Virus record (IMG/VR): IMGVR_UViG_3300006204_000270 | Direction: 5' to 3' (one strand) | DNA from: an uncultured virus (IMG/VR IMGVR_UViG_3300006204_000270) | Taxonomy: Duplodnaviria > Heunggongvirae > Uroviricota > Caudoviricetes | Length of the DNA: 20,000 nt | In this document: positions 2,066 to 18,369 of the stretch, one piece after another | Numbering within the stretch: the first letter of the stretch is position 1 | How the letters are laid out: each line of letters begins with the position of its first letter | Translations under genes and position numbers: made by a program | Notes under the pieces: generated by a model | Databases searched by the model: none | Told to the model about the DNA's origin: nothing | The model's input: the letters and a program-made list of their open reading frames with translations, nothing else

Positions 2066-2911
2066 TTATCGTTCTCGCGGCTCCGCCCCAACAATCCAAA
2101 AGAGAGCATTGTCTGTGTTGAGACCCTGCTCCAACAGGTATTTCATGGTCTTTGCCTCATACTGCGGGTGGAGCTTTAGCCCTCCTATACGCATTTTCTG
2201 CTGCTTTTCGTAGACAAAGCCCGGCGTATGGAAAAGGTCGTGGTAAATGAACTCCCGGCCTGCGCCGTATCGCTGGATAGTCGCCCGCACCTTTTCCCTG
2301 CGGTCGAACGCCGTGGATATGAGGTGAATGTTCTTCACTTTCTTCCCATATTTTTCCACACCGATAATCACGCCGCTGGCGGTTATCCCGCTCCCGCAGG
2401 TGATATAAAGGTCGTCGAGGTCGTCCGGGATATTCTGCACCTGTTCCGATACGGCACTCAAAAGCACCTCCCCGTAGTCGTCGAGGTTTATCCCGTACTG
2501 GACGAGGAACATTCCGCTCCGGGCCGCCAGCGCCTCCGCCTTTGCCTTGAGGACGTTGTGCCTGCCGCTTTTGGCTATCACTTCCACTCTGGCCCCGTAG
2601 CTCATGGCGAGCCGGGGCATAGCGCCTGTGGCGATTGCGTAGTCGCTGGCCCCCCCGTATGCCACAATGCAGGGTAGCCGATAGTGCCGGGCTGCTGCTG
2701 CCGTTATCGGCCCTTGCGGGGAGTGGATAGAGCAGTAGGTGATTATCCCCGTGGCCTCTGGTCTCCGCCGCAGTGCCGCCTCCACCAGTAGCATACACTG
2801 GCGCAGTTTCCCGCCGTTCACTCCTCCGGCCCCGAACGGGGCATATAGGTCGTCCCGCTTAAAGCGCATTCCGGCGATCTCCTGCACGGGGGTCAGGTCG
2901 TGGGCGTTCAT
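2066..2911 (-). CDS. PLP-dependent enzyme, fold type II (ACC deaminase/D-cysteine desulfhydrase-like)
   Basis: KRDDL...NGGKLRQ (PLP lysine motif), phosphate loop TCGSGITASG, LHPQYEAK matching the family LDPVYTGK motif; ATGA overlap with the radical SAM gene. Confidence 0.85.
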   Translation of the reverse strand: MNAHDLTPVQEIAGMRFKRDDLYAPFGAGGVNGGKLRQCMLLVEAALRRRPEATGIITYCSIHSPQGPITAAAARHYRLPCIVAYGGASDYAIATGAMPRLAMSYGARVEVIAKSGRHNVLKAKAEALAARSGMFLVQYGINLDDYGEVLLSAVSEQVQNIPDDLDDLYITCGSGITASGVIIGVEKYGKKVKNIHLISTAFDRREKVRATIQRYGAGREFIYHDLFHTPGFVYEKQQKMRIGGLKLHPQYEAKTMKYLLEQGLNTDNALFWIVGAEPRER

Positions 2912-3927
2912 TCCTCTGCCCCGAAAAGGCGCTTGTAGTATTCGGTCTTGCCTGCAAGCTCCTCCTGCATGAGGCCGTAGAAAGACTGGCCGTTGATTTT
3001 CTTGTTGATACCCGCTACCTGATTGAGGCTCTGGAAACAGCCGCCCGTCCCCACCTGTTTCATCAGCTCTGTCGGCTCCGGGCTTTTGCCGTTCACGAGC
3101 ATACAGAGGTTGTAGTCGTTCCCCTTAAAGCCCTCAAGCCCGTCTATCCCGCAGCACGTCATGCTGTCGCCCATTGGCCGCAGGCGGTTCTCCCCGGCGT
3201 AGAATTTCAGCCCGTGCCTGTGGCACTCCGCCCTGATGGCCTCGAAGTGTGGCCGCAGGACGCTCAATGGGTAGCAATGGTCGCCGCCGATTTTCACCAT
3301 GCCCTTTTTCCCCTTGTAGAATTTCATGCCCTCGACCACTACGCCGTAAACGCCTGCCGCCGCCAGCCGGGGGATATTCGCCATAACGTCTCTGAAAACC
3401 TCCGGCATATAGGGCTGTACCCGTACGATTACCCTCTGCACTCTGTGGGCGAGGGTTTCCACCATTTTCAGCCGCTCCTCGTAGGGCGGTGTCCCCGGTT
3501 CCAGCGGGTCGTACTTGCTGCATACCATGCTGATCTGCACGACGCAGTTGCTCTTTTCCAGCAGGTCGAGGTATTCCGGGTCTACGACGAGCCTGCCCTT
3601 TGTGCTGACGACGAATGGGTAGCGCGTCTCCGCCAGCAGCTTTAAGCACTCGTAGCTGGCCCGGATATTCTTCTCGATGGGCTGGAACGGGTCGCTCATG
3701 CCGCCCCAGTGAATGGGGATATTCCAGTCGCACCACGCCGTCTCCCGGCCCCGCTTGCCCTCGATGAACGAGCGCAGGGCCTCGACGCTCTCGTCCCGCT
3801 GTATCTTGGCAATGTTCTGTTTCTTCTGGGCGAAACAGTATTTGCACCCGTGGCTGCACCCCTTGTAGGTGTCAAAGCGCACGGGGAGGTTGCAGAGAAT
3901 GACCTGCGAGCCGCATTTGCACCCCAT
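2908..3927 (-). CDS. Radical SAM enzyme (spore photoproduct lyase-like clade)
   Basis: CxxxCxxC motif GCSHGCKYC preceded by DTYKG; GGMSDPFQPIE, STKG, LEPGTP..EERL, IVRVQP resemble SPL-like radical SAM proteins; extra Cys at N- and C-termini. Confidence 0.9.
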   Translation of the reverse strand: MGCKCGSQVILCNLPVRFDTYKGCSHGCKYCFAQKKQNIAKIQRDESVEALRSFIEGKRGRETAWCDWNIPIHWGGMSDPFQPIEKNIRASYECLKLLAETRYPFVVSTKGRLVVDPEYLDLLEKSNCVVQISMVCSKYDPLEPGTPPYEERLKMVETLAHRVQRVIVRVQPYMPEVFRDVMANIPRLAAAGVYGVVVEGMKFYKGKKGMVKIGGDHCYPLSVLRPHFEAIRAECHRHGLKFYAGENRLRPMGDSMTCCGIDGLEGFKGNDYNLCMLVNGKSPEPTELMKQVGTGGCFQSLNQVAGINKKINGQSFYGLMQEELAGKTEYYKRLFGAEE

Positions 3928-4497
3928 TTAGATTTCCCCCTTTACTTTCTGCATGATTACCTCGACAAGGGCCTCTTTGCCGTAGTCCTTGACGTAGGCT
4001 TTCAGCTCCTCTTGGTCTGCCTTGTCGAATTTGAGGCTGACGTTGAATAGCTCCTCGATGGCCCGCAGCTCCTCGTCCACGGTGTCGCCGTCGATAAGGC
4101 TGTCGATGTCGTTGGTGAGGCTGTCTATCTCCGCCTGCGTAAAGCCCGTGAGCGGCGCGTCGTCGCCCAGCTCCGCCAGCAGCAGGCCCAGCTTTTCCTC
4201 GTCCCAGCCGCCCTCGATTTTGTTGAGGGCCACGTTGAGCTGCCGCTCCTGCGTCTCGTCGAGGTCTACCACCGACACGTCCGCCTCTGCCTCCCCCTCG
4301 TTTTCGAGGACGGTGAGCCTCTGGTGGCCGCCGACTACCCTGTTGGTCTGCTTGTTCCAGACCACCGGGATAATCATGCCGTAGGTGAGAATGCTCCGGC
4401 GCAGGTTCTCGTACTCTGTGTCGCCGGGGATAAGGTCTATCCGGGGGTTGTATGCGGCCCTGTCCATGTCCGCGATTTTCTTCCGCACGATCTCCAC
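3928..4497 (-). CDS. ParB/Srx N-terminal domain protein (paralog 2)
   Basis: YNPR, LRRSI..YG...PVVWN, VVGGHQRL, LNVALNKIEGGWD; GTG start abuts upstream stop. Confidence 0.9.
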   Translation of the reverse strand: MEIVRKKIADMDRAAYNPRIDLIPGDTEYENLRRSILTYGMIIPVVWNKQTNRVVGGHQRLTVLENEGEAEADVSVVDLDETQERQLNVALNKIEGGWDEEKLGLLLAELGDDAPLTGFTQAEIDSLTNDIDSLIDGDTVDEELRAIEELFNVSLKFDKADQEELKAYVKDYGKEALVEVIMQKVKGEI

Positions 4498-5088
4498 TCA
4501 AATAACCCCCTTTACCCGGTTGATAATCGCCGTCGCCAGCTCCGTCTTTGCGTTCTCTGTCTGCTGGATATACTGCTCCACCGTCTCCCGCGCTCCCGCC
4601 GGGAGGCTGAATGTCATGGTGAATGTGTCGCGCTCTTTGCTGTCGCTGTAGCCGGAGAAGTCCTCCTCCATCAGGTCTTTGATGTGGTCGTACTGCATGA
4701 GGAGGCTTTGCAGCTCCCAATCCTCAAACCCCGTTACCTCCATCTCCCCGGCCTCGTCGAGCTGCTGCAAAAGGTCTGCCAGCTTGCCGATGTCCCAGCG
4801 GCCCTTAACCTTGTTCAGCAGGACGTTGAGGATTTTCTCGTCCTTTTCGTCGAGGTCTACGACGACGGCCTCGATGTCCTCCGCGCCCTTTTCCAGCAGC
4901 ACCTTGAGCCGCTGGTGGCCGCCCACGACGTTCCCGGTGCGCTCGTTCCAGATGATAGGTTCGATGTAGCCGAACGTCTCAATGCTCCGGCGGAGTTTCT
5001 GGTACTCCGCGTCCTCCGGCTGCAAGTCCCGCCGGGGATTGTAGGGGGCCGCCCTCAGTTGCGCCGCCTTTAGCGTCCGTATTTCCAT
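4498..5088 (-). CDS. ParB/Srx N-terminal domain protein (paralog 1)
   Basis: YNPR, LRRSIETFGYIEPIIWN, VVGGHQRL, LNKVKGRWD; RBS AAGGAG; first gene after the late promoter. Confidence 0.9.
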   Translation of the reverse strand: MEIRTLKAAQLRAAPYNPRRDLQPEDAEYQKLRRSIETFGYIEPIIWNERTGNVVGGHQRLKVLLEKGAEDIEAVVVDLDEKDEKILNVLLNKVKGRWDIGKLADLLQQLDEAGEMEVTGFEDWELQSLLMQYDHIKDLMEEDFSGYSDSKERDTFTMTFSLPAGARETVEQYIQQTENAKTELATAIINRVKGVI

Positions 5089-5131
5089 ATTTCCTCTCCT
5101 TTCTGTCCCTTTCCGCGTCGGAAATCCCCGT

Positions 5132-5170
5132 AAAAAATCGCCGCCCGATGGAAATTCCCATTAGGCGGCG
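5132..5170 (-). terminator. Intrinsic terminator/attenuator in late-operon leader
   Basis: Minus strand CGCCGCCTAATGG-GAATTT-CCATCGGGCGGCG followed by ATTTTTT. Confidence 0.7.
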
Positions 5171-5197
5171 TTTTCGCTCCGTGATTTTACAGGTTAC

Positions 5198-5254
5198 AGT
5201 ATAGCACATTTCATAGTGTCCTGTAAATGCCCGGTTTGTGCCTTTGCCTGTGTC
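5198..5254 (-). promoter_or_regulatory. Putative late promoter with upstream short repeats
   Basis: Extended -10 TGCTATACT (TATACT 5198-5203), weak -35 TTTACA (5222-5227, 18-nt spacer), three GGCA repeats at 5228-5248, right after the regulator stop. Confidence 0.6.
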
Positions 5255-5933
5255 ACGGGTTTTCAATGCCGCCTACCCCAAAAAACAGGGCCGTCAAATC
5301 CGCCACACATACGTCTATGTCCTTGTATACCGTGCGTTTGTCGATATGTTCTCTCTGGGCGATTGCCTCCGCCGTGGTATAGCTGTCTGCGAGGTAAAGC
5401 CCCTCCAACACGCGCCAGTGCCTTGCGTCGTCTGGCCTGCTCGACCGCTCGCACATGATTTTGTAGCAGTCCAGCATTTTGTTCACATGGGTCATTATGA
5501 TTTTGGTGGTGGCGTAGCTTTTCTGAATGCTCTCGACGATGATCTCCTCGTCTGCCACCCGGCCCATGCTCCGCATGATGTCCCCGAAATCCTCGTCCGC
5601 CTCCTCTGCGGCCTCTGTGCTGAACACGGCGTTCTCGTAGTAGGCGTTGAGCCGCCTGTAATTCCGTAGGAGGAGTTTGGTGTTGTGGTATTTCCAGTCA
5701 TACTGCTGCTGCCGGATTTTCTTGCGCTCCCGCTCCGCCGCTTTCACCGCTGCTGCGGCCCCGGTTTCCGCTCCGATTTTGCTGCCAACCTCCGCCCCTA
5801 TTTTTATTCCTATGGGCAGGGCGAGGTTTATGGCGGCCTGTATCTTCTCGTCCATGCCCCTTATCCCGGCCTCATGCGCCGCCGCGACCGCCGCCTCAAT
5901 CAATGCCTGTATGTCCAGCTCGCTTTCGTTCAT
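5253..5933 (-). CDS. Phage late transcriptional regulator (ArpU/RinA-like position, C-terminal HTH)
   Basis: YHNTKLLLRNYR N-terminal motif and sigma-4-like HTH TAEAIAQREHIDKRTVYKDI; last gene before the packaging operon; start reassigned to ATG 5933 (RBS AAGGAGG). Confidence 0.75.
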   Translation of the reverse strand: MNESELDIQALIEAAVAAAHEAGIRGMDEKIQAAINLALPIGIKIGAEVGSKIGAETGAAAAVKAAERERKKIRQQQYDWKYHNTKLLLRNYRRLNAYYENAVFSTEAAEEADEDFGDIMRSMGRVADEEIIVESIQKSYATTKIIMTHVNKMLDCYKIMCERSSRPDDARHWRVLEGLYLADSYTTAEAIAQREHIDKRTVYKDIDVCVADLTALFFGVGGIENP

Positions 5934-5986
5934 AGAGATAACTCCCTCCTTTGTTGCTTGGTATGGGAGTTGCCTCCCGCCCTGCC

Positions 5987-6130
5987 TCAAGGCCAGTCCC
6001 AATAGTCTGTGTCGTCCTCGTGCTCCCGCCACTCCGGGTCGTTTTTCATCTTGTCGATAGCGTTCACCCACGGTATTGCTATCGCTACCGCAATGGCCGT
6101 GGATAGCACTATCGCCACAACTATGCCCAC
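5987..6130 (-). CDS. Small single-pass membrane protein (47 aa; absent from ORF track)
   Basis: GTG 6130 after GAGGAGG: MGIVVAIVLSTAIAVAIAIPWVNAIDKMKNDPEWREHEDDTDYWDWP; fills the gap between recU and the regulator. Confidence 0.6.
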   Translation of the reverse strand: MGIVVAIVLSTAIAVAIAIPWVNAIDKMKNDPEWREHEDDTDYWDWP

Positions 6131-6149
6131 ACCGCCGCCCTCCTCTCCT

Positions 6150-6662
6150 CTACAAGAAATGGAGAGTGCCGCCTATGTACCTGACCTTGTACTCCTGCAC
6201 GTCCTCTAGGGTGATGTATTTCCTGCCGTAATGGTCTTTCATATCCCGGAAAACCTGCCACGGGATTTTGAAAAACTGCCGAAATCCAAACGACACCATC
6301 ACAAAGCAGTCCGCGCCCAGCGCCATATGGCGGTCGAGCTGCTTTTCCTGCTCCTCGCTTACGACGCTGCGCTGTAGCCTGTTGCTGTCCGTGTGCTTTG
6401 CCTCGAATACGACGGCCCGGCCCCCGGCCAGCGTCCCCTTGTAGTCCGGCTGGGCCTGCTTGGTGTAGCAGGCGAGGAATTGCCCTTTGGCGTTCTTCGG
6501 GCCGATGGGTTTCATCGGCTCCGGGGTCTTGGTGATCTCCGCCGCCCCCTTGAGGCGGTAGTGGCGGCAGGAGGCCTCAAGTAGCTCCTCCCACGCGCCG
6601 CCCGCCGCCCGGCTCCGCCTGCCTGTCATAACCGCCTTGAGGTGCTGCTCCCTGTTCGTCAT
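6150..6662 (-). CDS. recU: Holliday junction resolvase RecU
   Basis: G..WEELLE, ITKTPEP, PDYKG, VVFEAKHT, EQEKQL PD-(D/E)xK motifs of phage RecU. Confidence 0.9.
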   Translation of the reverse strand: MTNREQHLKAVMTGRRSRAAGGAWEELLEASCRHYRLKGAAEITKTPEPMKPIGPKNAKGQFLACYTKQAQPDYKGTLAGGRAVVFEAKHTDSNRLQRSVVSEEQEKQLDRHMALGADCFVMVSFGFRQFFKIPWQVFRDMKDHYGRKYITLEDVQEYKVRYIGGTLHFL

Positions 6663-6961
6663 GCCAGCCCCATTTCTGCGGCGAGCTGGGCCACCTTGTA
6701 GGCAATGCCGCTCTTAATGCCCTTGCATTTGCCCTCTGCAAGAGCCGTGAGGAGCGCCTGTACCGCCGAGGTGTTCCCGATAGGGCCAGCCGCCTCCGCG
6801 CCAGCCTGCGCCACGCTGGGGACGCTGGCGGCCATTTCCGGCTCTGCCGCCCGGTGGAACTGCTCGACGAGCTGCCTGTCCGTCATTCTCCGCAGCCGCA
6901 CAGCCTCCTCGTGAATGGCCTGCTCCGCCGGGGTGCGCCTACAGTTTTTCTTTTTACTCAT
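6659..6961 (-). CDS. Hypothetical phage protein
   Basis: 100-aa ORF, RBS GGAGG, overlaps both neighbours. Confidence 0.7.
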   Translation of the reverse strand: MSKKKNCRRTPAEQAIHEEAVRLRRMTDRQLVEQFHRAAEPEMAASVPSVAQAGAEAAGPIGNTSAVQALLTALAEGKCKGIKSGIAYKVAQLAAEMGLA

Positions 6962-7322
6962 GGTCGTCTCCCTCCAAAATCTTCTTTACTGCTTGGAGTT
7001 GTTCGAGGGTGTAGCGGTCGATATTCTCCCGGCTCATTGCCATTCGCAACAATATTTTCAGCTCCTCTCGTTCGAGGTATTCGCAAACCGCCTTGCTCGA
7101 TGGAAACAAAAGCCGGGGCGCTCCGTACTCTGTGTGTTCGACGAGGTAGGGCCTGCTCAAGGAAGTCTCTTTGAACTGACTGCCCCAATTCCCGCTGATG
7201 GTGACATACTTCCTTCCAACTTTCACAACCTCTGCTTCCGTCGTGCCGTATTTGTCTCTCCGGGTGCAACCGTCCCCCATAACGAAAACGGTCTGGCCGA
7301 CCTTGAAATTCTTAATTGTCAT
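6954..7322 (-). CDS. Hypothetical phage protein (SH3-like beta-barrel N-terminus)
   Basis: Start reassigned to ATG 7322 (RBS GAGGAGG); FKVGQTVFV...VVKVGRKYVTI. Confidence 0.7.
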   Translation of the reverse strand: MTIKNFKVGQTVFVMGDGCTRRDKYGTTEAEVVKVGRKYVTISGNWGSQFKETSLSRPYLVEHTEYGAPRLLFPSSKAVCEYLEREELKILLRMAMSRENIDRYTLEQLQAVKKILEGDDHE

Positions 7323-8993: not shown

Positions 8994-9017
8994 TCCCCGG
9001 AGCTTTCGCTCCGGGGA
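8994..9017 (-). repeat. Perfect 10-bp GC-rich hairpin with GAAA loop (DGR-type cruciform candidate)
   Basis: TCCCCGGAGC-GAAA-GCTCCGGGGA, 16 nt downstream of the 9034 stop, no U-tract. Confidence 0.85.
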
Positions 9018-9033
9018 TTTTCTCGATTTTCGA

Positions 9034-9855
9034 TTAGATGTCAAAGCCCGGCGCGAACCCATCCGAGAAGTTGGCGTGGCTGTAGCTGCGGCTGCCGCCG
9101 GTACCGACGAGCCTGAAAATGCTCGTGCTCGTCGCATTGACGGAGCGGAGCCAGTAGGGATACGTCCCATTGTCCCCGCACTCTTTCACCCGGTCGCGCT
9201 CCCGCTTGAAGATTTCGAGCTGGAAACTGTCGTCGATGTCTTTCCAGTAGCCCTCCTCCGAGGGGCCGAACATATCGGTGGCAGAGGGGAGCCAGAGGAG
9301 GTCTGCGTACTCCACCGTTTCGCCGTCGATGATTTCCGCCATCTGGCGCGGCTTGAAGATGGCCCGCCACTCCTGCGCGATATGGGGCAGAATGTCCACG
9401 AGGACGTGCGCCCGGCCTTTGCTTTTGAAATAGCCGCCCTTGTTGGTGGCCTCGTCGTTCATCACAGCCTCGTCCCAGCAGTCTTTGAACACAAACCGGG
9501 CCGCGCAACTGTCGCTGTAGCCACAAACCGCCGTAACGGTTCCACCCGTGTCGAGCGGAATGTCGATTTCATCGAAAGGCTTGATAACCCCGTCCAAGCG
9601 GCCCTCCTTGATGGCCGCTCTCAGCGTCTCCGGGGTGACTTTGCAGGGGAGAACGCGCCGGGCGTTCATGGTGCCGTCCGGCTCCGGGCGCTGCTGCGTC
9701 CGCATTTCACGTCGCCACCGCTGGGCGGCCAGAATGTCCTCTCCAATTTTGTGCTTGAGGTAGTCGGTAAATGCCGCCCTCTCCTGTGCGATAACCTCCG
9801 CGCCGCCATTGACCATAAACTCGATTGCCCCAACCTTGATTTTCACCTGTGCCAT
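9034..9855 (-). CDS. DUF6273-like protein with C-terminal C-type-lectin-like variable region (probable DGR target)
   Basis: LWLPSATDMFG, QLEIFK, YWLRS...F..V...G......A....GFAPGF C-terminal signature; RBS AGGAGG. Confidence 0.75.
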   Translation of the reverse strand: MAQVKIKVGAIEFMVNGGAEVIAQERAAFTDYLKHKIGEDILAAQRWRREMRTQQRPEPDGTMNARRVLPCKVTPETLRAAIKEGRLDGVIKPFDEIDIPLDTGGTVTAVCGYSDSCAARFVFKDCWDEAVMNDEATNKGGYFKSKGRAHVLVDILPHIAQEWRAIFKPRQMAEIIDGETVEYADLLWLPSATDMFGPSEEGYWKDIDDSFQLEIFKRERDRVKECGDNGTYPYWLRSVNATSTSIFRLVGTGGSRSYSHANFSDGFAPGFDI

Positions 9856-9870
9856 TGCCTTTTCCTCCTG

Positions 9871-10083
9871 TTATTTGTATTCTTTTCCTGTGTCTTTGTC
9901 TCTCAATGTAATCCGGCCTACAACCTCAAATCCGGCCAGTTCCGCCGTCTGTTTCAGAACCGGGATAAGCCTGCCTATCACCGCGAGGCGTTCCGCCTCC
10001 TGCTGCTGGCGCTGCTCCCTCTGCATATTGTTGTAAGCCGTCCCCGCTGTCGGGTCTGGGTAGCCCTCCGAGTTTTTATACAT
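9871..10083 (-). CDS. Hypothetical phage protein
   Basis: MYKNSEGYPDPTAG...AGFEVVGRITLRDKDTGKEY, a recurrent Clostridial phage ORF type; RBS GAGGAGG before ATG 10083. Confidence 0.8.
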   Translation of the reverse strand: MYKNSEGYPDPTAGTAYNNMQREQRQQQEAERLAVIGRLIPVLKQTAELAGFEVVGRITLRDKDTGKEYK

Positions 10084-10094
10084 GGCCGTCCTCC

Positions 10095-10772
10095 TCAAGT
10101 CGCAGGCTGCAATGCTCCCTGCGCCGCGTCCGTTCCGGCCTCTTTCGGCGTGGCCGCCAGCCGCTCCGCGAGCCTGTCCAGCTTGTAGTCGGTTTCTTTC
10201 TGGATTTCCCTGTCCTTATCGAAAATGATAAGGAGCTGGGCCAGCATGATAATCACGTCCGCGATCTCCTCGATGATGTTGGCGTGGGCCTGCGCCCGTG
10301 AGCCTTGCCCAAACCCGCAGCGCCGTTCTTTACAGAGGGCCTTTGTCAGCTCGCTCATTTCCTCGATTGCCATATCCACCTGCGCATGGGTGCCGTAGGC
10401 GGCGACGGCCTCTTGCAGCACCTCCGGGCGCTTGATGGCTGGGAGGCCGCTCTCCTCATGCTGTTTCAGCCAACCGCGCACCTCCGCCATTCCCCAGAGG
10501 GCCATGTAGAGCGTCGCAAAAACGCCGTCGAGGTCGTCCGTGCCGTATTGCAGGTCGTCCATGAGGGTGTCGTTCAACTCTTGGTCGCTCAGCCCGGAAA
10601 TGCGCTCCGGGTCGCCGTGCTTGCCGATGATCTCCCGCATGAGGTTGAGGGCAGAGATTTCCCGCTCGAAATCCCTGTACCACGCCTCTTTGTCCTTGAT
10701 GAATACGAAGTTGTGGGCCAGCTCCCACATACCCATGTCGCTGGTATCCTCGCAAATCTTTCTCAGCTCCAT
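10095..10772 (-). CDS. Two-domain protein with C-terminal MazG-like nucleotide pyrophosphohydrolase
   Basis: YG..AQVDMAIEEMSELTKAL...NIIEEIADVIIMLAQL (EExxE / EExxD); unknown acidic N-terminal domain. Confidence 0.75.
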   Translation of the reverse strand: MELRKICEDTSDMGMWELAHNFVFIKDKEAWYRDFEREISALNLMREIIGKHGDPERISGLSDQELNDTLMDDLQYGTDDLDGVFATLYMALWGMAEVRGWLKQHEESGLPAIKRPEVLQEAVAAYGTHAQVDMAIEEMSELTKALCKERRCGFGQGSRAQAHANIIEEIADVIIMLAQLLIIFDKDREIQKETDYKLDRLAERLAATPKEAGTDAAQGALQPAT

Positions 10773-10782
10773 AGCTGCCTCC

Positions 10783-11688
10783 TTAGTCCGAAATGGTGAC
10801 GTAGGTGTCCCCGCGCCTGTTCAGCGTCAAGTCTACCGGGCTGCCGCAGTTCAGGCACGGCCACTCGAATGTGCCGTCCGTGACGTTCGTCCTGTAGTTG
10901 AACGTGCTGCCGCATTTGCACTTGAGGTGGAGCGGCTTGAGGTCGTGCAGCTCCGTCGTGTGGCCGCATTTGCAGGTATTCCGGGTGATGGGGGTCTTGG
11001 CACAAAACGCTCTGATTTCCCCGCACTGCTCGCACCTGATAATCAGAAAGCCCTTGTAGGCCTCCGGCTCTCGCTGCGGCTCCGGCTTTTTCGGCTCTAC
11101 CGTTTTGCTGGCCTTGAAATCCCCGAACATACGCTCCACACGGCTCTGCGGCCTCCCTTTAGCCTGCGGCGCTTTGGGCGGCTCCTGCGCTACGGGAGGG
11201 GCCTCCTGCGCCACTTTGGGCGCTGCCGTCTCCTGCCCGGCGGCATACTGGAAAGCCCTCTGTATGAGGTCTGTCGCCCGCTCCGGCGGCATATCGAATT
11301 TCATTTCCCCGAACGGGGTCGCCAATGTTATCTGCATATCGTTTCCTCCTGTCCTGTGTATTCCGAGGCTCTTTGTGAGGGCCTTTTCGATGTTGTGCAT
11401 TTCCTCCGCCGTGACGCTCCCGATGTGCCGTTGGAGCCTGCTCTTGCATACCGTGACGATCTGCTCGCAGAGGGCGATTGACGGCTTTTCTGCCGAGCCG
11501 ATATAGACGTGTGTGGGGAGGCTCGCTTTCTTTCTGGTGGTGAGGTAGACCAACTCGACGATAGGGGCGTGTCTGTTCCCCAAGTCGTTGCTGACTATGA
11601 CCGCCGGGCGGTCTGCGTTCTGCTCGCTGCCCGTCGCCATTCCGCCGACAACATAGAAGATGTCGCCGCGCTTTACGTTCGCTGCCGT
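10783..11688 (-). CDS. MazF/PemK-like domain fused to multi-zinc-ribbon domain
   Basis: KRGDIFYV...GSEQNADRPAVIVSND...LTT...SIALCEQIVTV..SRL PemK motifs; C-terminal CEQC, CKC, CKC, CLNC; RBS-appropriate codon at 11688 is ACG, first ATG at 11640. Confidence 0.8.
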   Translation of the reverse strand, partial: TAANVKRGDIFYVVGGMATGSEQNADRPAVIVSNDLGNRHAPIVELVYLTTRKKASLPTHVYIGSAEKPSIALCEQIVTVCKSRLQRHIGSVTAEEMHNIEKALTKSLGIHRTGGNDMQITLATPFGEMKFDMPPERATDLIQRAFQYAAGQETAAPKVAQEAPPVAQEPPKAPQAKGRPQSRVERMFGDFKASKTVEPKKPEPQREPEAYKGFLIIRCEQCGEIRAFCAKTPITRNTCKCGHTTELHDLKPLHLKCKCGSTFNYRTNVTDGTFEWPCLNCGSPVDLTLNRRGDTYVTISD

Positions 11689-14493: not shown

Positions 14494-17400
14494 TTACTCG
14501 TAAATAACCTTGCTGCCCTCCGGCGTTTTCACCACGTCAACGCTCTGGGGAAATCTCGACTTCATGGCCGGGTCGTGCGTGATCGCCATGACCTTGAGGC
14601 CGTCGTACCTCTGCTGGATTGCCTCAAGCGCGTCGCAGTACGCCTGCACTCCGGGGCTGTCGAGGAAAGGCGGTTCGTCGATAAAGAGAAATCCCAACTG
14701 CACCCCGGCCTTGCTGCTCTTGATCTCCGAGAGGGCGAGAATGACCGAGAGGGCCGCCTTGACGCGCTCGCCTCCGCTCCGGCTCATGTAGGGGAGCCGC
14801 CCGGTGTCGCTGTCGTTGATGATGATGTCGAGGGTCGTGACCTCTTTCTTGCTGTTGGATTTCAGCACCTTTTCCGTCACGAACTCCACGCTCATGCGTC
14901 CCTGCGACATCTGGCCGAGAATGTTGGTCGCCGTTGCCTCGAATACCGGGATAATGCTGCGAATGATGTTGTGGGGTATGCCGTCCTGCGAGAAAGCCTT
15001 TTTCAGCTCCTCGTACCCGGCGGCCTGCACACCCAGCACGTTCACCTGCTCTTGGCATTCCGCCGCCTGCTTGAGGGCAAGCTGCACCTGCTCCCGCTTT
15101 GCCCGCAGCCCGCCGATTTGGAAATCCGCCTGCCGTGCCGCGTCCTGCATGGCCTTGATTTCCGCCTCTGCCGCGTCTACCTGCGCTTGCAGCTCCTCTC
15201 TGCCGACAGTCTTGCCCTGCTCCTCTGCCAGCTCCTCCCGCGCCTCAGCGATCTCCCGGTCGATGTCCTCGACCTCTGCGTCCAGCTCAAGGAGGCGCTG
15301 CGCTGCCGCCGCCTTTTTCTCCCGCGCCACGGGGAGCTGCCGCTCTTTGTCTGTCCACTGCCGGGCCACGGCGATTTCGGCTTGCAGGCGGTCGTAGTCC
15401 GCGCTGGCCGCCGCGACGCTTTGGAGCTGCTGCTCAATCCCGGCCAGCTCTGTCCGGCCCTTTTCGGCGGTAGCCTCTGCGTCGGAAACGGCCTTTTCCA
15501 GCTCTGCGGCCCGCTCCTCCATCAGCGTCAGCTCGCTCCTCTGCGCCTCAAGGCTGTGGTACTCCCTTTCGGCGGCCTCAAGGAGGCGCTGGGAGGCCCG
15601 CAGAGAGGCGATTTCCTCCGGGACGTGTTTCTTGTCGTCATAGGCCCTTTGCGCCAGAGAGAGGCCCGCAGAGGCCGTCTGGCGGCTTTTCTGGTACTCT
15701 ACGTTGAGCGCAACCAGTTCTTCTTCTTTGTCGTGGACTGCACCTTTGGCTGCAACCGCGTCAGCAAGGAATTTGCATGTGGCTATAGCCTCGATTGGGC
15801 ACCCGCTGTTGTTCAGCAGCTCCACCTTTCCATTGAGTGTGGAGATATTCTGCTCAATCCGCGTCCGGGCGGCTGTGTAGTCGCGCTCAAGGCGCTCCAC
15901 CTCCGCCTGCGCCGCCGCGAGGCCGTCCTTTGCCGCCGTGTACTCTGGCATGAGCTTTTCCAGCTCCGCGAGCCTGCTGGCCGCCGCCTCGTACTCCGCG
16001 TGTTTCCCTGCCAGCTCCGCCGCCCGTGCGAGGGCCTGCTGCAAGGGGCCAATCTTCATCAACGTAATGGCCGCCTTTTTCTGCCGCATTTCCTGCGCCG
16101 AGCTTTCCGCCAGCGTGATCGCGTCGGCAATCTGCTGTCGCCGGGCGGTAAGGTTGTCGTAGGCGGCCTTGCCCTTTATCAGCTCTTTCTCCCGCTCCAA
16201 CAGGCGGCCCAGCTCTGCCACGCCTGCGGTGATCTCCGGCTCTGCCGCGAGTATGGTGTCTGCGGCTGTGATAAGCCCTACCTGCGCGGTCTTTGCGGCC
16301 TCTTTGGCGGCTTTCTGGCCCGTGAGTGAGGTGAGCTTGCTGTTGAGCCGCATAACCCGGCCCGCCGCCTCAAGCTGCGTGTTGAGCTTGACCTTGAGGC
16401 TGTCCACGGCTGCCGCCTTTTCCCGCGCCGCCGCCTCATAGCTGCTCCGGCACTCCTCTTGGTGCTTGAGCTGTGCGTCCAGCTCCGCGCTGTCCGGCAA
16501 TCCTGCGGTGATGGTGTCCACCTTGTCCATCAGGGCGCGGATTGTGCGGTTTGTCTCTGTGACCTTGTCCGCCGCCAGCTCCTCCATGCCCCCGTAAATC
16601 CCCAGCCCCAAAATGCTGCCGAGGATATTCATGCGGGCCTCTTTGTCCGCTTGGAGGAATAGGCCGTACTGGTCTTGCATGATAAGGGCGCAGGCTTTGA
16701 GTGTCAGGCTGTCCATGCCGATGATGTTGATGATCTCCTGCTGTGTGTCCTTGAACTTCTCTTTGCTGCGGTCTACCCACTCGCCCTCGACCTGCTCCGC
16801 GATATTCAGCGTGGCCTTTCCGCTTTTCTGCCGGGTGCGCGTCACGCGGTAGAGGCGGTCTCCCAGCTTGAACGTGAATTTGATAGCCCCGCTCCGAGCG
16901 TCCGGGGCGTTGCAAATCCAGCCCGTCAGCTCGCCCTCTCGCGGCTCCTCGTAGAGCGCGTCCAGCATAGCGTCCATGAATAGGCTGCTCTTGCCCACGC
17001 CGTTGCTGCCGTTGATGGTGCAAAACCGAATACCGTCAAAGGTAAAACGCTCCTCCCGGTAGTTGCGGTAGTTCTTGACCTCGATTTCCACCGGGACGAA
17101 TACTCCCGTATGCCGCTCCTGCGCGGCCTTTTCCGTGGCCTCCGCAATGATGGGCCGGGCCAGCTCCACCAGTTGCCCAACGCGCTCCGGCTCCATGCCC
17201 TTTTCTGCGAGGTAGTCGGTAAGGTTCCCCTCCGGGGTGCTGTCTGCGTCCATGCTCCGGCGGTCTACCGTGATGGTAATTTTCTGCGGGGTGATCTCCT
17301 GCACCCAAAAGGCTCCGGCCCGGTAGAGCGCATTTTCGTAGGCCGCGTGATTGAAAGCCTTGTTATGCTCGTCTGTGCAGTCGTAGAGGACGCGCACGAT

Positions 17401-18369
17401 TTTCCCTTTTACCTCCTCCGCCTGCTCATGCGTAAGGAGCCAGCCGTCGTTGTCCTGCGGGGCGTTCAGTATCAGCGCCTCTACGTCGCCGTCCTTGAGG
17501 CGAATGGTCTTGTACTGCCGCGTGGGGAGCTGCTGGAATGTGGAAGTGACCGCGCCGCTGTCGTCGATGTCGTGTATGTAGTAGCCGCGCTGCTGGCCCT
17601 CGTCGTTGAAGTTGAGCGCCGAGATCGCGCCGCAGTAGAACGTGTTCTTGCAGCCGTCGAGCTGCTGGGGGCGGTGGATATGGCCGAAACAAACGAGGTC
17701 GAAGTCCGCCGCCGCGAGCGTGGAGGGGTAGACCACAGGCTCGAACTGGCTGAAAAATGCCGTCTGGCCGCTCTCCATGTTGCAGCCCGTGATGGTGAAG
17801 TGAGATACCAGCACCGTCGGTGCGCCTGCGTCGCACTGCGCCTTGAGGCCCATAACGATGTCCTCCACGGCTTTGGTGAACACCTCGTTTTCCTCCTCCT
17901 TGGAGAGGCCGGGGTGCTTTGCCCGGTAGTAGCCTCGGTCAAATCCGGGGACGCAGGCGATTTGGATTTTCTTTCCGTGCCTATAGCCGTAGTAGGTCGA
18001 TACCCCCGGCTCTGCCACGATATGTACGCTGTCGTCTCCGGCGAATGTACTTTCCAGCGTGGCAAACTGCTCCGCGCTGTCGTGATTGGGGGTGCCGCGC
18101 ATAACCACCACGGGGCAAACGTCCGAAAACTCCCGCAGGAATTTCACCGCCGTCTGCTGCTCCTTGAGGCCCCGGTCGCTCCAAACGCGGGCCTGATGGA
18201 AGATGTCTCCGGCGATAACGGCAATGTCCGGCTGCTGCTTTTTGGCCCCGGCCACCAGTGCGTCGAGGCACTTGCAGATGTCCAGATACCGGGCGTTCTC
18301 TCCGCCCCGCTCCGGGCCGGGGAATGAGCCGATGTGCAGGTCGCCCGTGTGCAATACTCTGATACCCAT
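14494..18369 (-). CDS. SbcD(Mre11)-SbcC(Rad50) single-chain fusion nuclease/ATPase
   Basis: Phosphoesterase motifs HTGDLH, AGDIFH, GTPNHD, SH, FGHIH; Walker A GSNGVGKS, Q-loop IMQDQY, long coiled coil, signature SGGE, Walker B FIDE, H-loop ITHD in one uninterrupted frame. Confidence 0.93.
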   Translation of the reverse strand: MGIRVLHTGDLHIGSFPGPERGGENARYLDICKCLDALVAGAKKQQPDIAVIAGDIFHQARVWSDRGLKEQQTAVKFLREFSDVCPVVVMRGTPNHDSAEQFATLESTFAGDDSVHIVAEPGVSTYYGYRHGKKIQIACVPGFDRGYYRAKHPGLSKEEENEVFTKAVEDIVMGLKAQCDAGAPTVLVSHFTITGCNMESGQTAFFSQFEPVVYPSTLAAADFDLVCFGHIHRPQQLDGCKNTFYCGAISALNFNDEGQQRGYYIHDIDDSGAVTSTFQQLPTRQYKTIRLKDGDVEALILNAPQDNDGWLLTHEQAEEVKGKIVRVLYDCTDEHNKAFNHAAYENALYRAGAFWVQEITPQKITITVDRRSMDADSTPEGNLTDYLAEKGMEPERVGQLVELARPIIAEATEKAAQERHTGVFVPVEIEVKNYRNYREERFTFDGIRFCTINGSNGVGKSSLFMDAMLDALYEEPREGELTGWICNAPDARSGAIKFTFKLGDRLYRVTRTRQKSGKATLNIAEQVEGEWVDRSKEKFKDTQQEIINIIGMDSLTLKACALIMQDQYGLFLQADKEARMNILGSILGLGIYGGMEELAADKVTETNRTIRALMDKVDTITAGLPDSAELDAQLKHQEECRSSYEAAAREKAAAVDSLKVKLNTQLEAAGRVMRLNSKLTSLTGQKAAKEAAKTAQVGLITAADTILAAEPEITAGVAELGRLLEREKELIKGKAAYDNLTARRQQIADAITLAESSAQEMRQKKAAITLMKIGPLQQALARAAELAGKHAEYEAAASRLAELEKLMPEYTAAKDGLAAAQAEVERLERDYTAARTRIEQNISTLNGKVELLNNSGCPIEAIATCKFLADAVAAKGAVHDKEEELVALNVEYQKSRQTASAGLSLAQRAYDDKKHVPEEIASLRASQRLLEAAEREYHSLEAQRSELTLMEERAAELEKAVSDAEATAEKGRTELAGIEQQLQSVAAASADYDRLQAEIAVARQWTDKERQLPVAREKKAAAAQRLLELDAEVEDIDREIAEAREELAEEQGKTVGREELQAQVDAAEAEIKAMQDAARQADFQIGGLRAKREQVQLALKQAAECQEQVNVLGVQAAGYEELKKAFSQDGIPHNIIRSIIPVFEATATNILGQMSQGRMSVEFVTEKVLKSNSKKEVTTLDIIINDSDTGRLPYMSRSGGERVKAALSVILALSEIKSSKAGVQLGFLFIDEPPFLDSPGVQAYCDALEAIQQRYDGLKVMAITHDPAMKSRFPQSVDVVKTPEGSKVIYE

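Follow-up and report, generated by a model that had tools for sequence, protein, structure and literature searches.

The closest described cases of a diversity-generating retroelement (DGR) with a small second target come from Toutatisvirus and from gut myophages. According to the available part of the report by Egorov and Atkinson (bioRxiv 10.1101/2024.10.15.618418), Faecalibacterium phage FP_Toutatis carries a DGR with a second variable repeat (VR) gene. There, as at the locus described here, a tail-end hotspot contains a single template, with the reverse transcriptase on one side and the Avd gene (at our locus, an ORF in the Avd position) on the other, the first variable repeat (VR1) belongs to a 'Hoc-like' Ig plus DUF6273 protein, a small DUF6273 protein carries the second in its C-terminus, being encoded by a core gene far from the template (17,480 nt in FP_Toutatis), and some relatives possess the targets without the DGR. 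The gut myophage proteins nd4_tgt2 and nd12_tgt2, as presented in the accessible text of Baykov et al. 2023 (PMC10743442), are likewise small DUF6273-only proteins (234-294 aa) with the VR at the 3' end, which have their template in common with a larger target containing Ig domains, show an enrichment of serine and aromatic residues and vary in their N-terminal helical add-ons. In contrast to our locus, where the target is encoded ~32 kb away among replication genes, target 2 of nd4 and nd12 apparently lies within the DGR cassette, and a C-lectin-like fold was modelled there with a high confidence that was not reached for our protein.

Further examples are known from other phages. For the Faecalibacterium prophages Lelie and CP11, the available sections of Gulyaeva et al. 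2024 (PMC11792537) report 'small DGR target proteins' and two variable regions; as in our case, the large and the small target are both DUF6273 proteins with the variable region at the C-terminus, and alignments of cognate genomes are hypervariable. In that study Lelie showed no activity at the read level; its likeness to our locus is one by description. Roseburia phage Shimadzu carries a second VR (VR2, orf43) outside the tail module, for which rewriting was seen both in vitro and in mice (Cornuault et al., bioRxiv 10.1101/575076, available part), and the second target of Quimbyvirus (ORF 80/84) has methyltransferases as neighbours (Benler et al. 2021, PMC8008677, available part). Shimadzu and Quimbyvirus are unrelated phages with unrelated hosts and are likened to our locus by layout; our target gene, like the second target of Quimbyvirus, adjoins a DNA methyltransferase gene. 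In the survey by Wu et al. 2018 (PMC5758913, as far as accessible) non-adjacent targets occurred in 45 of 372 DGRs, and in phages they were located less than 50 kb from the enzyme, one target being adjacent and one not. For BPP-1, named in the available text of PMC8008677 as the only studied phage DGR system, target recognition depends on 5' homology, on a GC-rich IMH and, 4-34 bp further downstream, on a GC hairpin whose stem of 7-10 bp is closed by a GRNA loop (Guo et al. 2011, PMC3240598, available part). With respect to the accessible content of both PMC5758913 and PMC3240598, our locus shows no difference in mechanism.

The DNA analysed here (20,000 nt, hereafter the window) belongs to an uncultured tailed phage for which the GenBank phage collection yielded no near DNA match. 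Its DUF6273 target gene occupies positions 9034-9855 on the minus strand and, according to the translation, encodes a soluble protein of 273 aa, whose last 40 residues are exactly those quoted in the preliminary description of the locus. The protein (P0001, pI 5.3) was assigned to PHROG 21980 and matches Pfam DUF6273 (PF19789) over residues 128-266 with 31.1 bits at a gathering cut-off of 23.5; Pfam together with relatives matching residues 63/77-273 places the DUF6273 domain at about residues 63-273. Neither a signal peptide nor a membrane segment was found in it. Over residues 132-273 it shares 36% identity with the VR1 protein, in the C-terminal domain of the latter. The Toutatis protein and P0001 are not closely homologous, since tblastn of P0001 against the GenBank phage collection returned only Dulem virus 34 (37% identity), near records possibly lying outside this search.

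The gene is surrounded by replication and DNA-metabolism genes and not by tail genes, in keeping with its earlier designation as an early, non-tail gene, and a DNA methyltransferase gene follows it directly in the window. Its position in a tightly spaced, co-directional row between NTP-pyrophosphohydrolase/p75 and methyltransferase/DUF5131/RecU genes is kept in 16 of 21 related loci.

The 3' part of the gene contains a 108-nt stretch homologous to a template repeat (9046-9153, minus strand, codons 235-270), which very probably represents a second, non-adjacent variable repeat (VR2) of a DGR in the same temperate phage. Two template copies matching VR2 (L104:8352-8459 and L105:6547-6654) differ from it at 14 adenine sites and at no other position, so that over 108 nt all 14 differences between VR2 and its cognate template coincide with the 31 adenines of the template (hypergeometric P = 1.9e-9). 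The preliminary description had suggested looking for a copy of this kind beside a reverse transcriptase, and it was found on contigs continuing the nearest viral record. When viral contigs were scanned for the 3' motif of the template, 40 loci were obtained, two of which (L062, L075) showed no non-adenine mismatch to the window repeat over 105 nt, the next best having seven. In ten relatives with their own template the mismatches to VR2 fell at adenines in 154 of 155 instances, one occurring elsewhere, in addition to one 3-nt indel. Within the window an adenine-tolerant scan recovered only VR2, as had been claimed for the lack of a template there; the next-best site carried 50 non-adenine mismatches over 137 nt or 37 over 108 nt. 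A 70-nt stretch of the repeat, in precisely the allele of the window, had no match in viral or metagenome contigs.

A codon table of template versus window confines the mutable core to 9061-9138 (minus strand, codons 240-265), in which 11 AAY codons of the template and eight other adenine-holding codons set the variable residues; Tyr, Ser, Gly and Asn are enriched at these sites. The originally proposed reading of NNY codons as variable positions is largely borne out, as 13 of the 14 candidate codons lie on adenine-holding template codons, the exception being CTC (L249). Taken by itself, the NNY codon argument is weak evidence for a DGR target: such codons make up 21 of 27 in residues 240-266 and 136 of 246 in the remainder of the gene (Fisher p = 0.025).

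The variation among relatives follows the same pattern. For this comparison 31 proteins (P0001-P0003 and P0122-P0149) were examined, of which the 29 with a length of 273 aa were used and two of other lengths omitted. These 29 near-identical proteins differ at 9-18 of 27 residues within 240-266 and at 0-7 of 246 residues outside, their varying columns correspond to the adenine-holding codons, and each of the 29 variable stretches is unique, which points to recent diversification in the lineage. Evidently, it is the restriction of the hypervariation to the repeat together with a cognate template differing only at adenines that lifts VR2 far above chance. As a DGR target the case is one more instance of the published layout.

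The elements expected at a DGR target site are present as well. The GC-rich, IMH-like 3' end of the repeat, GGGTTCGCGCCGGGC, was located at 9046-9060 (minus strand) from the sequence and the VR/TR alignment; it is conserved among relatives, its last base being C in the window and A in the template of this lineage. At 8994-9017 (minus strand), starting 16 nt past the stop codon, a target-recognition hairpin/cruciform element follows with a GC-rich stem of 10 bp and a GAAA loop. Folded as DNA it reaches −15.7 kcal/mol (z = −6.45), and none of 200 shuffles folded as well. Across 16 aligned loci 98.8% of the cells pair and 5 of the 10 base pairs show compensatory change, whereas in the controls none of 500 shuffles equalled the observed pairing and slid partners stayed at or below 54.4%. 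Both the tract and the perfect hairpin had been recognized in the preliminary description, which thereby gains the support of compensatory changes for the latter. A similar hairpin stands downstream of VR1 and is absent after the template; a U-tract after the hairpin was not found on the sense strand. Tract and hairpin of the window satisfy the published target-site requirements (PMC3240598, available part). With the template differing only at adenines, the local hypervariation, the GC tract and the hairpin, the proposal of a real DGR target is confirmed.

The cassette of template and reverse transcriptase was traced to the end of the tail/baseplate module of the same phage lineage, ~32.5 kb from VR2. 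It starts with a 609-aa Ig-like plus DUF6273 protein bearing VR1; an ORF in the Avd position comes next, then the template repeat and finally the reverse transcriptase. The nearest viral record, G001 (77% complete), is 98.2% identical to the window over 19,761 nt; it has no reverse transcriptase and no template, and blastn and the adenine-tolerant scan detected no second repeat copy in it. Consequently, the link between VR2 and the cassette runs through overlapping contigs from other samples: the end of G001 is overlapped by G019 (99.3%, 5.3 kb) and G017 (98.0%, 1.3 kb), and G017, G018 and G019 are mutually 99.4-99.8% alike and all carry VR1, template and reverse transcriptase. PF00078 matches lie directly downstream of the template in all three. 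DGR reverse transcriptases are marked by the motif [I/L/V]GxxxSQ; the open frame of the enzyme in G018 and G019 comprises 443 aa and holds YMDD and LGSEISQ, which we take to be this DGR-type motif, and that in G017 comprises 371 aa with YMDD. The templates of G017 and G018 are intact, with no non-adenine mismatch to the window VR2, and the copy in G019 has lost 15 adenines. The ORF in the Avd position (L104:7779-8309; L029:2894-3434) gave no Pfam match and belongs only to an unnamed PHROG.

Among the viral records with a homologue a reverse transcriptase was present in 7 of 10, and in all three of those that are at least 90% complete. In the complete 61-kb genome G002, VR1, template and VR2 could all be mapped. 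The phage is temperate, its host setting being mouse-gut Oscillospiraceae prophages; this phage group and host, together with the distance of ~32.5 kb, set the locus apart from Toutatisvirus. The DGR that had been suspected elsewhere in the phage or its host, acting in trans, is thus found in the same phage.

According to the mechanism we propose, the template RNA would be copied into cDNA with errors at adenines, and the mutated cDNA would replace VR1 and, independently, VR2, each target being recognised via its 5' homology together with two further elements, the GC-rich tract at its 3' end and the GAAA hairpin that follows. By this route about 19 residues on the C-terminal face of the small soluble DUF6273 protein would be re-randomised, with Tyr, Ser, Gly and Asn favoured.

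Two other accounts of the variable stretch were weighed against this mechanism. An origin in which no retroelement took part, but only ordinary recombination or diversifying selection, has practically negligible probability: apart from the window itself having no template and no reverse transcriptase nothing speaks for it, whereas the confinement of the differences to template adenines (14/14 in the window, P = 1.9e-9; 154/155 in relatives), the exact coincidence of the varying protein columns with adenine-holding codons and the conserved target-site hairpin all argue against it. The other account concerns current activity. VR2 in this genome could be a fossil, recently written by the DGR and frozen in sequence after the cassette had been swapped or had decayed. 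Such replacement is seen nearby, as G012, of the relatives with full context the closest (94% nt identity in the region of the gene), has another type of tail-end cassette, whose template (WWLRSPNTNN...GVRP type) rewrites its own target and shows 27 non-adenine mismatches to VR2, no further template being found in G012 by blastn or beside its six reverse-transcriptase matches, and G006 carries an FGE-sulfatase-type template instead. Decay is indicated by the template copy of G019, which differs at 15 adenine sites, and by the shortened enzyme open frame of G017 (371 aa); furthermore, relatives keeping both targets without the DGR are reported in the available part of bioRxiv 10.1101/2024.10.15.618418. 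With these swapped cassettes, the decayed template and the short enzyme frame, VR2 of this particular genome may be silent or orphaned. We nevertheless consider a fossil unlikely, since G017, G018 and G019, which overlap the nearest record, carry the cognate cassette type, the templates of G017 and G018 are intact, and the different variable stretches in all 29 near-identical proteins indicate recent diversification.

The question common to such cases is why a small soluble protein encoded among replication genes should be hypermutated. The target protein is presumably a hypervariable binding module. Tentatively, and short of calling it probable, we lean towards an action within the cell, during infection or lysogeny, alongside genes of DNA or nucleotide metabolism or of conflict, and not as a part of the virion. 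The position in the early block, the lack of a signal peptide or membrane segment and a domain fusion in a sister clade make an intracellular role, which the preliminary description had suggested with anti-defence as an example, no more than plausible. In this sister clade, another phage group, a single open frame (P0172) joins the same DUF6273 domain (~55% identical, variable scaffold and hairpin being the same as well) to a DUF4406 / PHROG 355 'nucleoside 2-deoxyribosyltransferase'-like domain. The DUF4406-DUF6273 fusion is DGR-diversified and located among replication genes, and a published description of it was not found in the limited collection of literature searched. It is the strongest hint for the intracellular reading and suggests that effector and sensor are combined as in cellular conflict systems. 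The sensor-effector logic resembles that of the DGR-diversified C-lectin 'antigen sensors' with N-terminal effectors of multicellular bacteria, which are predicted to be cytoplasmic (Dore et al. 2024, PMC10907252, available part). Those sensors are cellular and combine STAND or MoxR NTPases with FGE-type lectin folds, whereas our protein is phage-encoded, small and without an NTPase. A conflict role for a non-structural second target is not new, having been proposed for Quimbyvirus by Benler et al. 2021 (PMC8008677, available part).

On a broader view, which we regard as more doubtful still, the small DGR targets that recur far from their cassettes in the replication regions of gut phages could be intracellular hypervariable sensors or binders rather than receptor-binders of the virion; one template would then diversify both an outer adhesin and an internal protein, the latter recognising changeable molecules of the host or of rival phages and acting with nucleotide- or DNA-modifying enzymes. 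If true, phage-host conflict would gain a new kind of player in the form of an intracellular hypervariable binder encoded by a phage, and the early-block position together with the newly noticed fusion makes an intracellular role directly testable in the mouse-gut system, for which lysogens are probably within reach.

It is rather unlikely, in our estimation, that the target protein instead acts, like BPP-1 Mtd, as an adhesin or receptor-binding protein, released or associated with the virion, which happens to be encoded outside the structural module. To our knowledge, the phage DGR targets studied by experiment all bind surface receptors; VR2 and the tail-module target share one template and hence one binding-loop chemistry, the C-terminal part of P0001 resembles the C-terminal domain of the VR1 protein (36%), and the enrichment of Tyr, Ser, Gly and Asn fits a binding surface. 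The N-terminal hairpin and 35-residue helix of the model could serve as a docking or oligomerisation module, and receptor binding is favoured by the authors of the closest cases in the accessible parts of PMC10743442 and bioRxiv 10.1101/2024.10.15.618418. Against these points stands the gene's location, in 16 of 21 related loci, within a block of early, replication and DNA-modification genes, with a like placement of the second targets published, in the text available, for unrelated phages, as well as the fusion to a nucleoside-2-deoxyribosyltransferase-like domain in the sister clade. In addition, the N-terminal beta-prism and beta-sandwich domains by which Mtd docks to the fibre as a trimer (PMC10743442, available part) are missing from the modelled target protein, the confident part of which consists of hairpin and helix, and according to the accessible part of bioRxiv 10.1101/575076 the VR2 alleles of Shimadzu were under weaker selection than those of VR1 during spread in mice.

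Structure predictions contributed little to this question. The AlphaFold2 model of the target protein has a mean pLDDT of 61.7, residues 189-267 staying below 50. Its secondary structure shows an N-terminal beta-hairpin and a long helix in about residues 1-55, the confident part being the hairpin at 2-17 and one helix at 19-53 (pLDDT 75-86). A Foldseek search of this model, which is poor in its C-terminal half, gave no PDB match at E <= 0.001, and the profile of the target family gave nothing meaningful among solved structures by sequence (best E = 0.2). The Atlas model aligns with DUF6273 clusters over residues 62-273 (TM 0.75), while look-alikes outside DUF6273, for the whole protein and for residues 1-75, all scored below 0.9. 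In the VIA structure search the best domain-level row was 9qa6_A, a weak match (Z 4.8, rmsd 4.9, 138 aligned, model residues 85-273), residues 31-322 of which are termed DUF6273 (PMC12402451). The top VIA rows (Z 4.1-5.3) were rejected as long-helix look-alikes of residues 1-62. Support for the putative lectin-like fold of DUF6273 comes from published models. The model of the fusion protein P0172 was useless (mean pLDDT 33.7), and a sequence search with the N-terminal part of this protein gave no solved structure. The PADLOC library contained no family for the target protein or the fusion at E <= 0.001. In G024 the fusion gene appears adjacent to an ORF in the Avd position, a template and a reverse transcriptase; this arrangement was set aside as a possible assembly chimera, the gene being split into two ORFs with the join at the repeat.

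With respect to the metagenomes, the 24 listed sequencing runs were examined at the level of contigs. In three of four runs (X3, X6, X16) contigs break at the repeat; the stretch also has VR1 and template copies, so that extra contigs there prove nothing. Contigs from an RNA library span 9124-9920 at low depth, which is no demonstration of transcription. The phage is common in mouse-gut metagenomes, the stretch being present in 20 run rows from 14 studies.

The stretch 8994–9156, singled out in the preliminary description, comprises the 3'-terminal part of a minus-strand gene (9034–9855) and the spacer beyond it, and the C-terminal end quoted there matches the translation exactly. The encoded protein, P0001 (273 residues by translation, pI 5.3), matches Pfam DUF6273 over residues 128–266 with 31.1 bits (cut-off 23.5) as well as PHROG 21980, a family of unknown function, and no membrane segment or signal-like N-terminus was found in its sequence. 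Among 1,928 candidates from one library 700 relatives were obtained at E ≤ 0.001, and a 50%-clustered library yielded 519. The 150 representatives listed from the latter are mostly stand-alone proteins of ~200–230 aa which align to P0001 residues 63/77–273; consequently, the conserved domain spans ~200 residues and the first ~60 residues are, on these alignments, evidently an exchangeable add-on.

Three independent lines of evidence indicate that the 3' stretch of the P0001 gene is the variable repeat of a diversity-generating retroelement (DGR), here termed VR2 (window 9046–9153, minus strand). Homologues with 95% identity to P0001 differ from it only within residues 240–266. For a closer comparison 31 proteins were examined (P0001–P0003 plus 28 from two 90% clusters); the 29 with 273 aa were kept and two of other lengths excluded. 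All 29 variable stretches were unique, and compared with the window protein 9–18 of the 27 positions differed inside the stretch, against 0–7 (mostly 0–2) of the 246 outside. When viral contigs were searched with the 3' end specific to the template, 40 loci were obtained, two of which carry a template with no non-adenine mismatch to VR2 over the 105 nt that were compared, and the runner-up has seven; in relatives the template repeat lies ~730 nt upstream of the reverse transcriptase. Over the full 108 nt VR2 and its cognate template differ at 14 sites, all of them among the template's 31 adenines (hypergeometric P = 1.9e-9), and in the 10 relatives with a template of their own VR2 differs at 154 adenine sites, one other site and one 3-nt indel. 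Furthermore, the varying protein columns coincide exactly with the adenine-holding template codons (11 AAY as well as ACG, AGG, ACC, GAC, AGC and TAC). The preliminary reading as a DGR target was thus right, given the confined hypervariation and a cognate template differing at adenines only, and 13 of the 14 NNY codons proposed as variable positions fall on adenine-holding template codons, CTC being the one that does not; the NNY enrichment then used as an argument is weak by itself (p = 0.025). Among the residues that the 29 proteins carry at the 11 sites with an AAY template codon, Tyr was enriched 3.8-fold over a uniform NNY expectation, Asn and Gly 1.9-fold and Ser 1.4-fold, while Pro was absent and Val, Cys, Phe, Leu and Ile were rare. 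This composition fits a selected binding surface, with the caveat that the enzyme's own mutational bias may have contributed to it.

A scan of the window bore out that it holds neither template nor reverse transcriptase. Neither was found in the nearest record of the phage (G001, 46.7 kb, 77% complete, with 98.2% identity to the window across 19,761 nt), which breaks off before the tail module is complete. Three contigs continue this record: G019 overlaps its last 5.3 kb at 99.3% identity and G017 its last 1.3 kb at 98.0%, and G017, G018 and G019 share 99.4–99.8% identity among themselves. In all three the cassette follows baseplate genes (Baseplate_J, YQBQ-like) in the order 609-aa target protein, ORF in the Avd position, template, reverse transcriptase. 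The 609-aa protein combines Ig-like parts with a C-terminal DUF6273 domain ending in a variable repeat of its own (VR1), which shows 0 non-adenine and 12–14 adenine-site mismatches to the template; for the ORF in the Avd position no family match was found. The motif [I/L/V]GxxxSQ is a mark of DGR reverse transcriptases, and the open frame in G018 and G019 contains LGSEISQ and YMDD. Counted through the contig overlap, the template lies ~7.0 kb past the end of G001 and ~32.5 kb from VR2; the remote template postulated earlier does exist, together with its reverse transcriptase, in the same phage lineage. The same plan is present on a single molecule in a complete relative with terminal repeats (G002, 61,290 bp), with VR1 at 2750–2861, the template at 3472–3583, the reverse transcriptase at 3658–5169, followed by endolysin and holin, and VR2 at 31517–31628. 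Reverse transcriptases were found in seven of the ten viral records with a P0001 homologue, including all three that are at least 90% complete, and six of the seven also carry the cognate template.

The 3' end of VR2 reads GGGTTCGCGCCGGGC; the final base, C in both variable repeats, is A in the template of the lineage. Beyond it, starting 16 nt past the stop codon as previously described, a hairpin with a GC-rich 10-bp stem and a GAAA loop was confirmed at 8994–9017 (minus strand). Its DNA fold reaches -15.7 kcal/mol (z = -6.45); across 16 aligned loci 98.8% of the cells pair and both sides have changed in five of the ten pairs, values reached by none of 500 shuffles, slid partners giving at most 54.4% pairing. 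A similar GC hairpin with GAAA loop follows VR1 and none follows the template. Published target-site rules comprise a GC-rich IMH (the 3' tract of the repeat), a GC stem of 7–10 bp with a GRNA loop, placed 4–34 bp beyond the repeat, together with 5' homology (PMC3240598), and the VR2 tract and hairpin fit them. The stem lacks a following U-tract on the sense strand and so does not represent an ordinary terminator in that direction. On the plus strand a T-rich tail follows the same hairpin (8994–9017), which looks terminator-like for antisense transcription. Over the last codons of P0001 a sigma-70-like match (TTGACA, 16 nt, GAAAAT; 10 of 12) lies at 9017–9044 (minus strand); its -35 hexamer coincides with conserved F-D-I codons, and transcription from this match would enter the methyltransferase gene.

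With respect to activity, the runs with this stretch are available as contigs. Contigs break at VR2 in three of the four runs examined, and several short contigs lie on VR2; because VR1 and template copies would align there too, this is only a weak hint of activity. It is unlikely that VR2 is silent in this very genome, a reading favored by the turnover seen in relatives, among which the cassette is unstable. G012, with 94% nucleotide identity around the gene, has a tail-end DGR whose different template disagrees with VR2 at 27 non-adenine sites, the template of G006 is of the FGE-sulfatase type, and the reverse transcriptase frame in G017 comprises only 371 aa. The copy in the template position of G019 (L106:2630–2737, minus strand) differs from the templates of G017 (L104:8352–8459) and G018 (L105:6547–6654) at 15 sites, all adenines, yet keeps the template-type 3' end; it is either a mutagenised template (self-homing) or an assembly chimera. 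The G012 template (WWLRSPNTNN...GVRP-type, L058, G012:C23, ~62556–64712) rewrites its own target with 0 non-adenine and 20 adenine-site mismatches; in this locus and in the reverse-transcriptase locus of G006 (L022) the tail-end cassette has been swapped among close relatives, and both have an early VR2 with no cognate template. In run X2 a 2,053-nt contig carries two repeat copies (cf. window 9043–9153) 723 nt apart, the spacing of VR1 to template, with 0 and 15 differences from the window VR2; the VR2 contig of X2 itself has 13. A VR1 allele identical to VR2, VR1/VR2 gene conversion or repeat mis-threading in an assembly are possible causes, and the exact window allele was not found in viral and metagenome contigs beyond this one.

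The AlphaFold2 model of P0001 (mean pLDDT 61.7, pTM 0.51) was confident at the N-terminus (strands 2–8 and 11–17, helix 19–53, block pLDDT 75–86) and for part of the first half of the domain, and poor over residues 189–267. With this model, poor over that region, Foldseek gave nothing against the PDB at E ≤ 0.001. In a wide VIA search residues 1–62 gave long-helix look-alikes, and the sole domain-level row was a weak one (model residues 85–273, chain 9qa6_A, Z 4.8, rmsd 4.9, 138 aligned); residues 31–322 of that protein are termed DUF6273 by its authors (PMC12402451). An Atlas model of the exact P0001 sequence (pTM 0.72) matched DUF6273 clusters with TM 0.75. The likeness of P0001 to C-type lectins rests on published DUF6273 models (PMC10743442; bioRxiv 10.1101/2024.10.15.618418) and not on our own model. 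The most confident part, an N-terminal beta-hairpin and a 35-residue helix (residues 1–55), is replaced by other modules in relatives, and viral FGE-sulfatase-domain proteins grouped in one Atlas cluster begin with a similar structure (TM 0.50). By these models, this part may be a docking or oligomerisation module common to small phage DGR targets.

The P0001 gene belongs to the replication/DNA-metabolism block in the genome of a tailed phage, and the terminase follows ~7 kb downstream. All on the minus strand, the order is fused SbcD/SbcC-like nuclease, replication initiator, DnaC-like loader, PemK/MazF-like protein, NTP pyrophosphohydrolase, 75-aa protein, P0001, DNA methyltransferase, DUF5131, ProQ-like, RecU, two ParB-like, radical-SAM, PLP-dependent enzyme, and the small and large terminase subunits. 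The far side of G001 carries genes for a large serine recombinase and an HTH repressor-like protein, homologous loci are embedded in long contigs of metagenome-assembled Oscillibacter/Oscillospiraceae genomes, and the stretch is present in 20 run rows (14 studies), almost all of them with a mouse-gut label; the source is a temperate phage of mouse-gut Oscillospiraceae.

We tentatively read P0001 as an intracellular binder or sensor, with slightly less than an even chance of being right. In 16 of 21 related loci it lies on the same strand between the NTP pyrophosphohydrolase/75-aa and the methyltransferase/DUF5131/RecU genes, and in four of the other five RecU is still 2–3 kb downstream; this conserved early-block place points to a role inside the cell. 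Second targets of unrelated phages likewise lie among early or DNA-modification genes (bioRxiv 10.1101/2024.10.15.618418; bioRxiv 10.1101/575076; PMC8008677). The missing export signal is a weak pointer, as virion proteins lack one too. Against an intracellular role, the authors of the closest cases favor receptor binding (bioRxiv 10.1101/2024.10.15.618418; PMC10743442), the P0001 domain has the same template as the tail-module target and 36% identity to the C-terminal domain of the latter, and the modelled hairpin and helix could dock P0001 to the virion. A virion or released binder is somewhat unlikely, and some role other than these two is unlikely.

A further pointer to an intracellular role comes from a fusion protein of another phage group, P0172 (327 aa), with 54% identity to P0001 residues 73–273 and an N-terminal DUF4406 domain (E = 2.7e-20; PHROG 355 'nucleoside 2-deoxyribosyltransferase', E = 1.3e-24). 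The fusion occupies one uninterrupted reading frame in five viral contigs (L107:5088–6065, L108:5740–6717, L109:7682–8659, L110:4891–5865 and L111:4872–5846; proteins P0172 and P0313–P0319), with flanks of DNA-binding/transposase-like versus helicase and primase genes, and it shares the P0001-type variable scaffold and GC hairpin. Its cluster of eight members shows 93–96% identity, the variable stretch accounting for almost all of the differences, and an Atlas cluster of 52 members has both families together. The template of contig G024 differs from the repeats of the five contigs at 0–2 non-adenine and 15–19 adenine sites. In G024 itself (L116, 8,960 nt; 3732–7096, minus strand) the fusion gene stands directly upstream of an ORF in the Avd position, the template (5354–5461) and the reverse transcriptase, with an endolysin further on; it is split into two ORFs joined at the variable repeat, so that G024 may be a VR2/VR1 assembly chimera. 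A limited literature search returned no published account of a fusion of this type as a DGR target. Its enzyme-like N-terminus and hypervariable C-terminal lectin-like domain recall the cytoplasmic DGR-diversified sensors of multicellular bacteria (PMC10907252).

As a DGR target, VR2 is of low novelty. Wu et al. 2018 (PMC5758913) already described non-adjacent phage targets within 50 kb, and small DUF6273 second targets have been reported for Toutatisvirus (bioRxiv 10.1101/2024.10.15.618418), Lelie and CP11 (PMC11792537) and nd4/nd12 (PMC10743442), which makes VR2 a further case of a known layout. Remote second repeats are likewise described for Shimadzu (bioRxiv 10.1101/575076), Quimbyvirus (PMC8008677) and four species of induced gut phage (PMC12629997). 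The early-region target is of interest as it recurs without explanation, and the fusion adds to this.

Some neighboring genes deserve mention. Just upstream of the P0001 region, a 285-aa protein (10783–11640, minus strand) joins an N-terminal PemK/MazF-like domain (PF02452, E = 3.7e-21) to a long C-terminal extension; no antitoxin partner was identified among the window gene annotations, and the NTP pyrophosphohydrolase (PHROG 2245; 10095–10772, minus strand) follows. Directly ahead of the small terminase gene, and preceded by the two tandem ParB-like genes, the radical-SAM-like and PLP-dependent (PALP) genes (2066–3927 and 3928–5088, minus strand) may form a DNA- or nucleotide-modification set. 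The nuclease is one ORF of 1,291 aa (14494–18369, minus strand), an N-terminal SbcD-like phosphoesterase joined to an SbcC/SMC-like ATPase.
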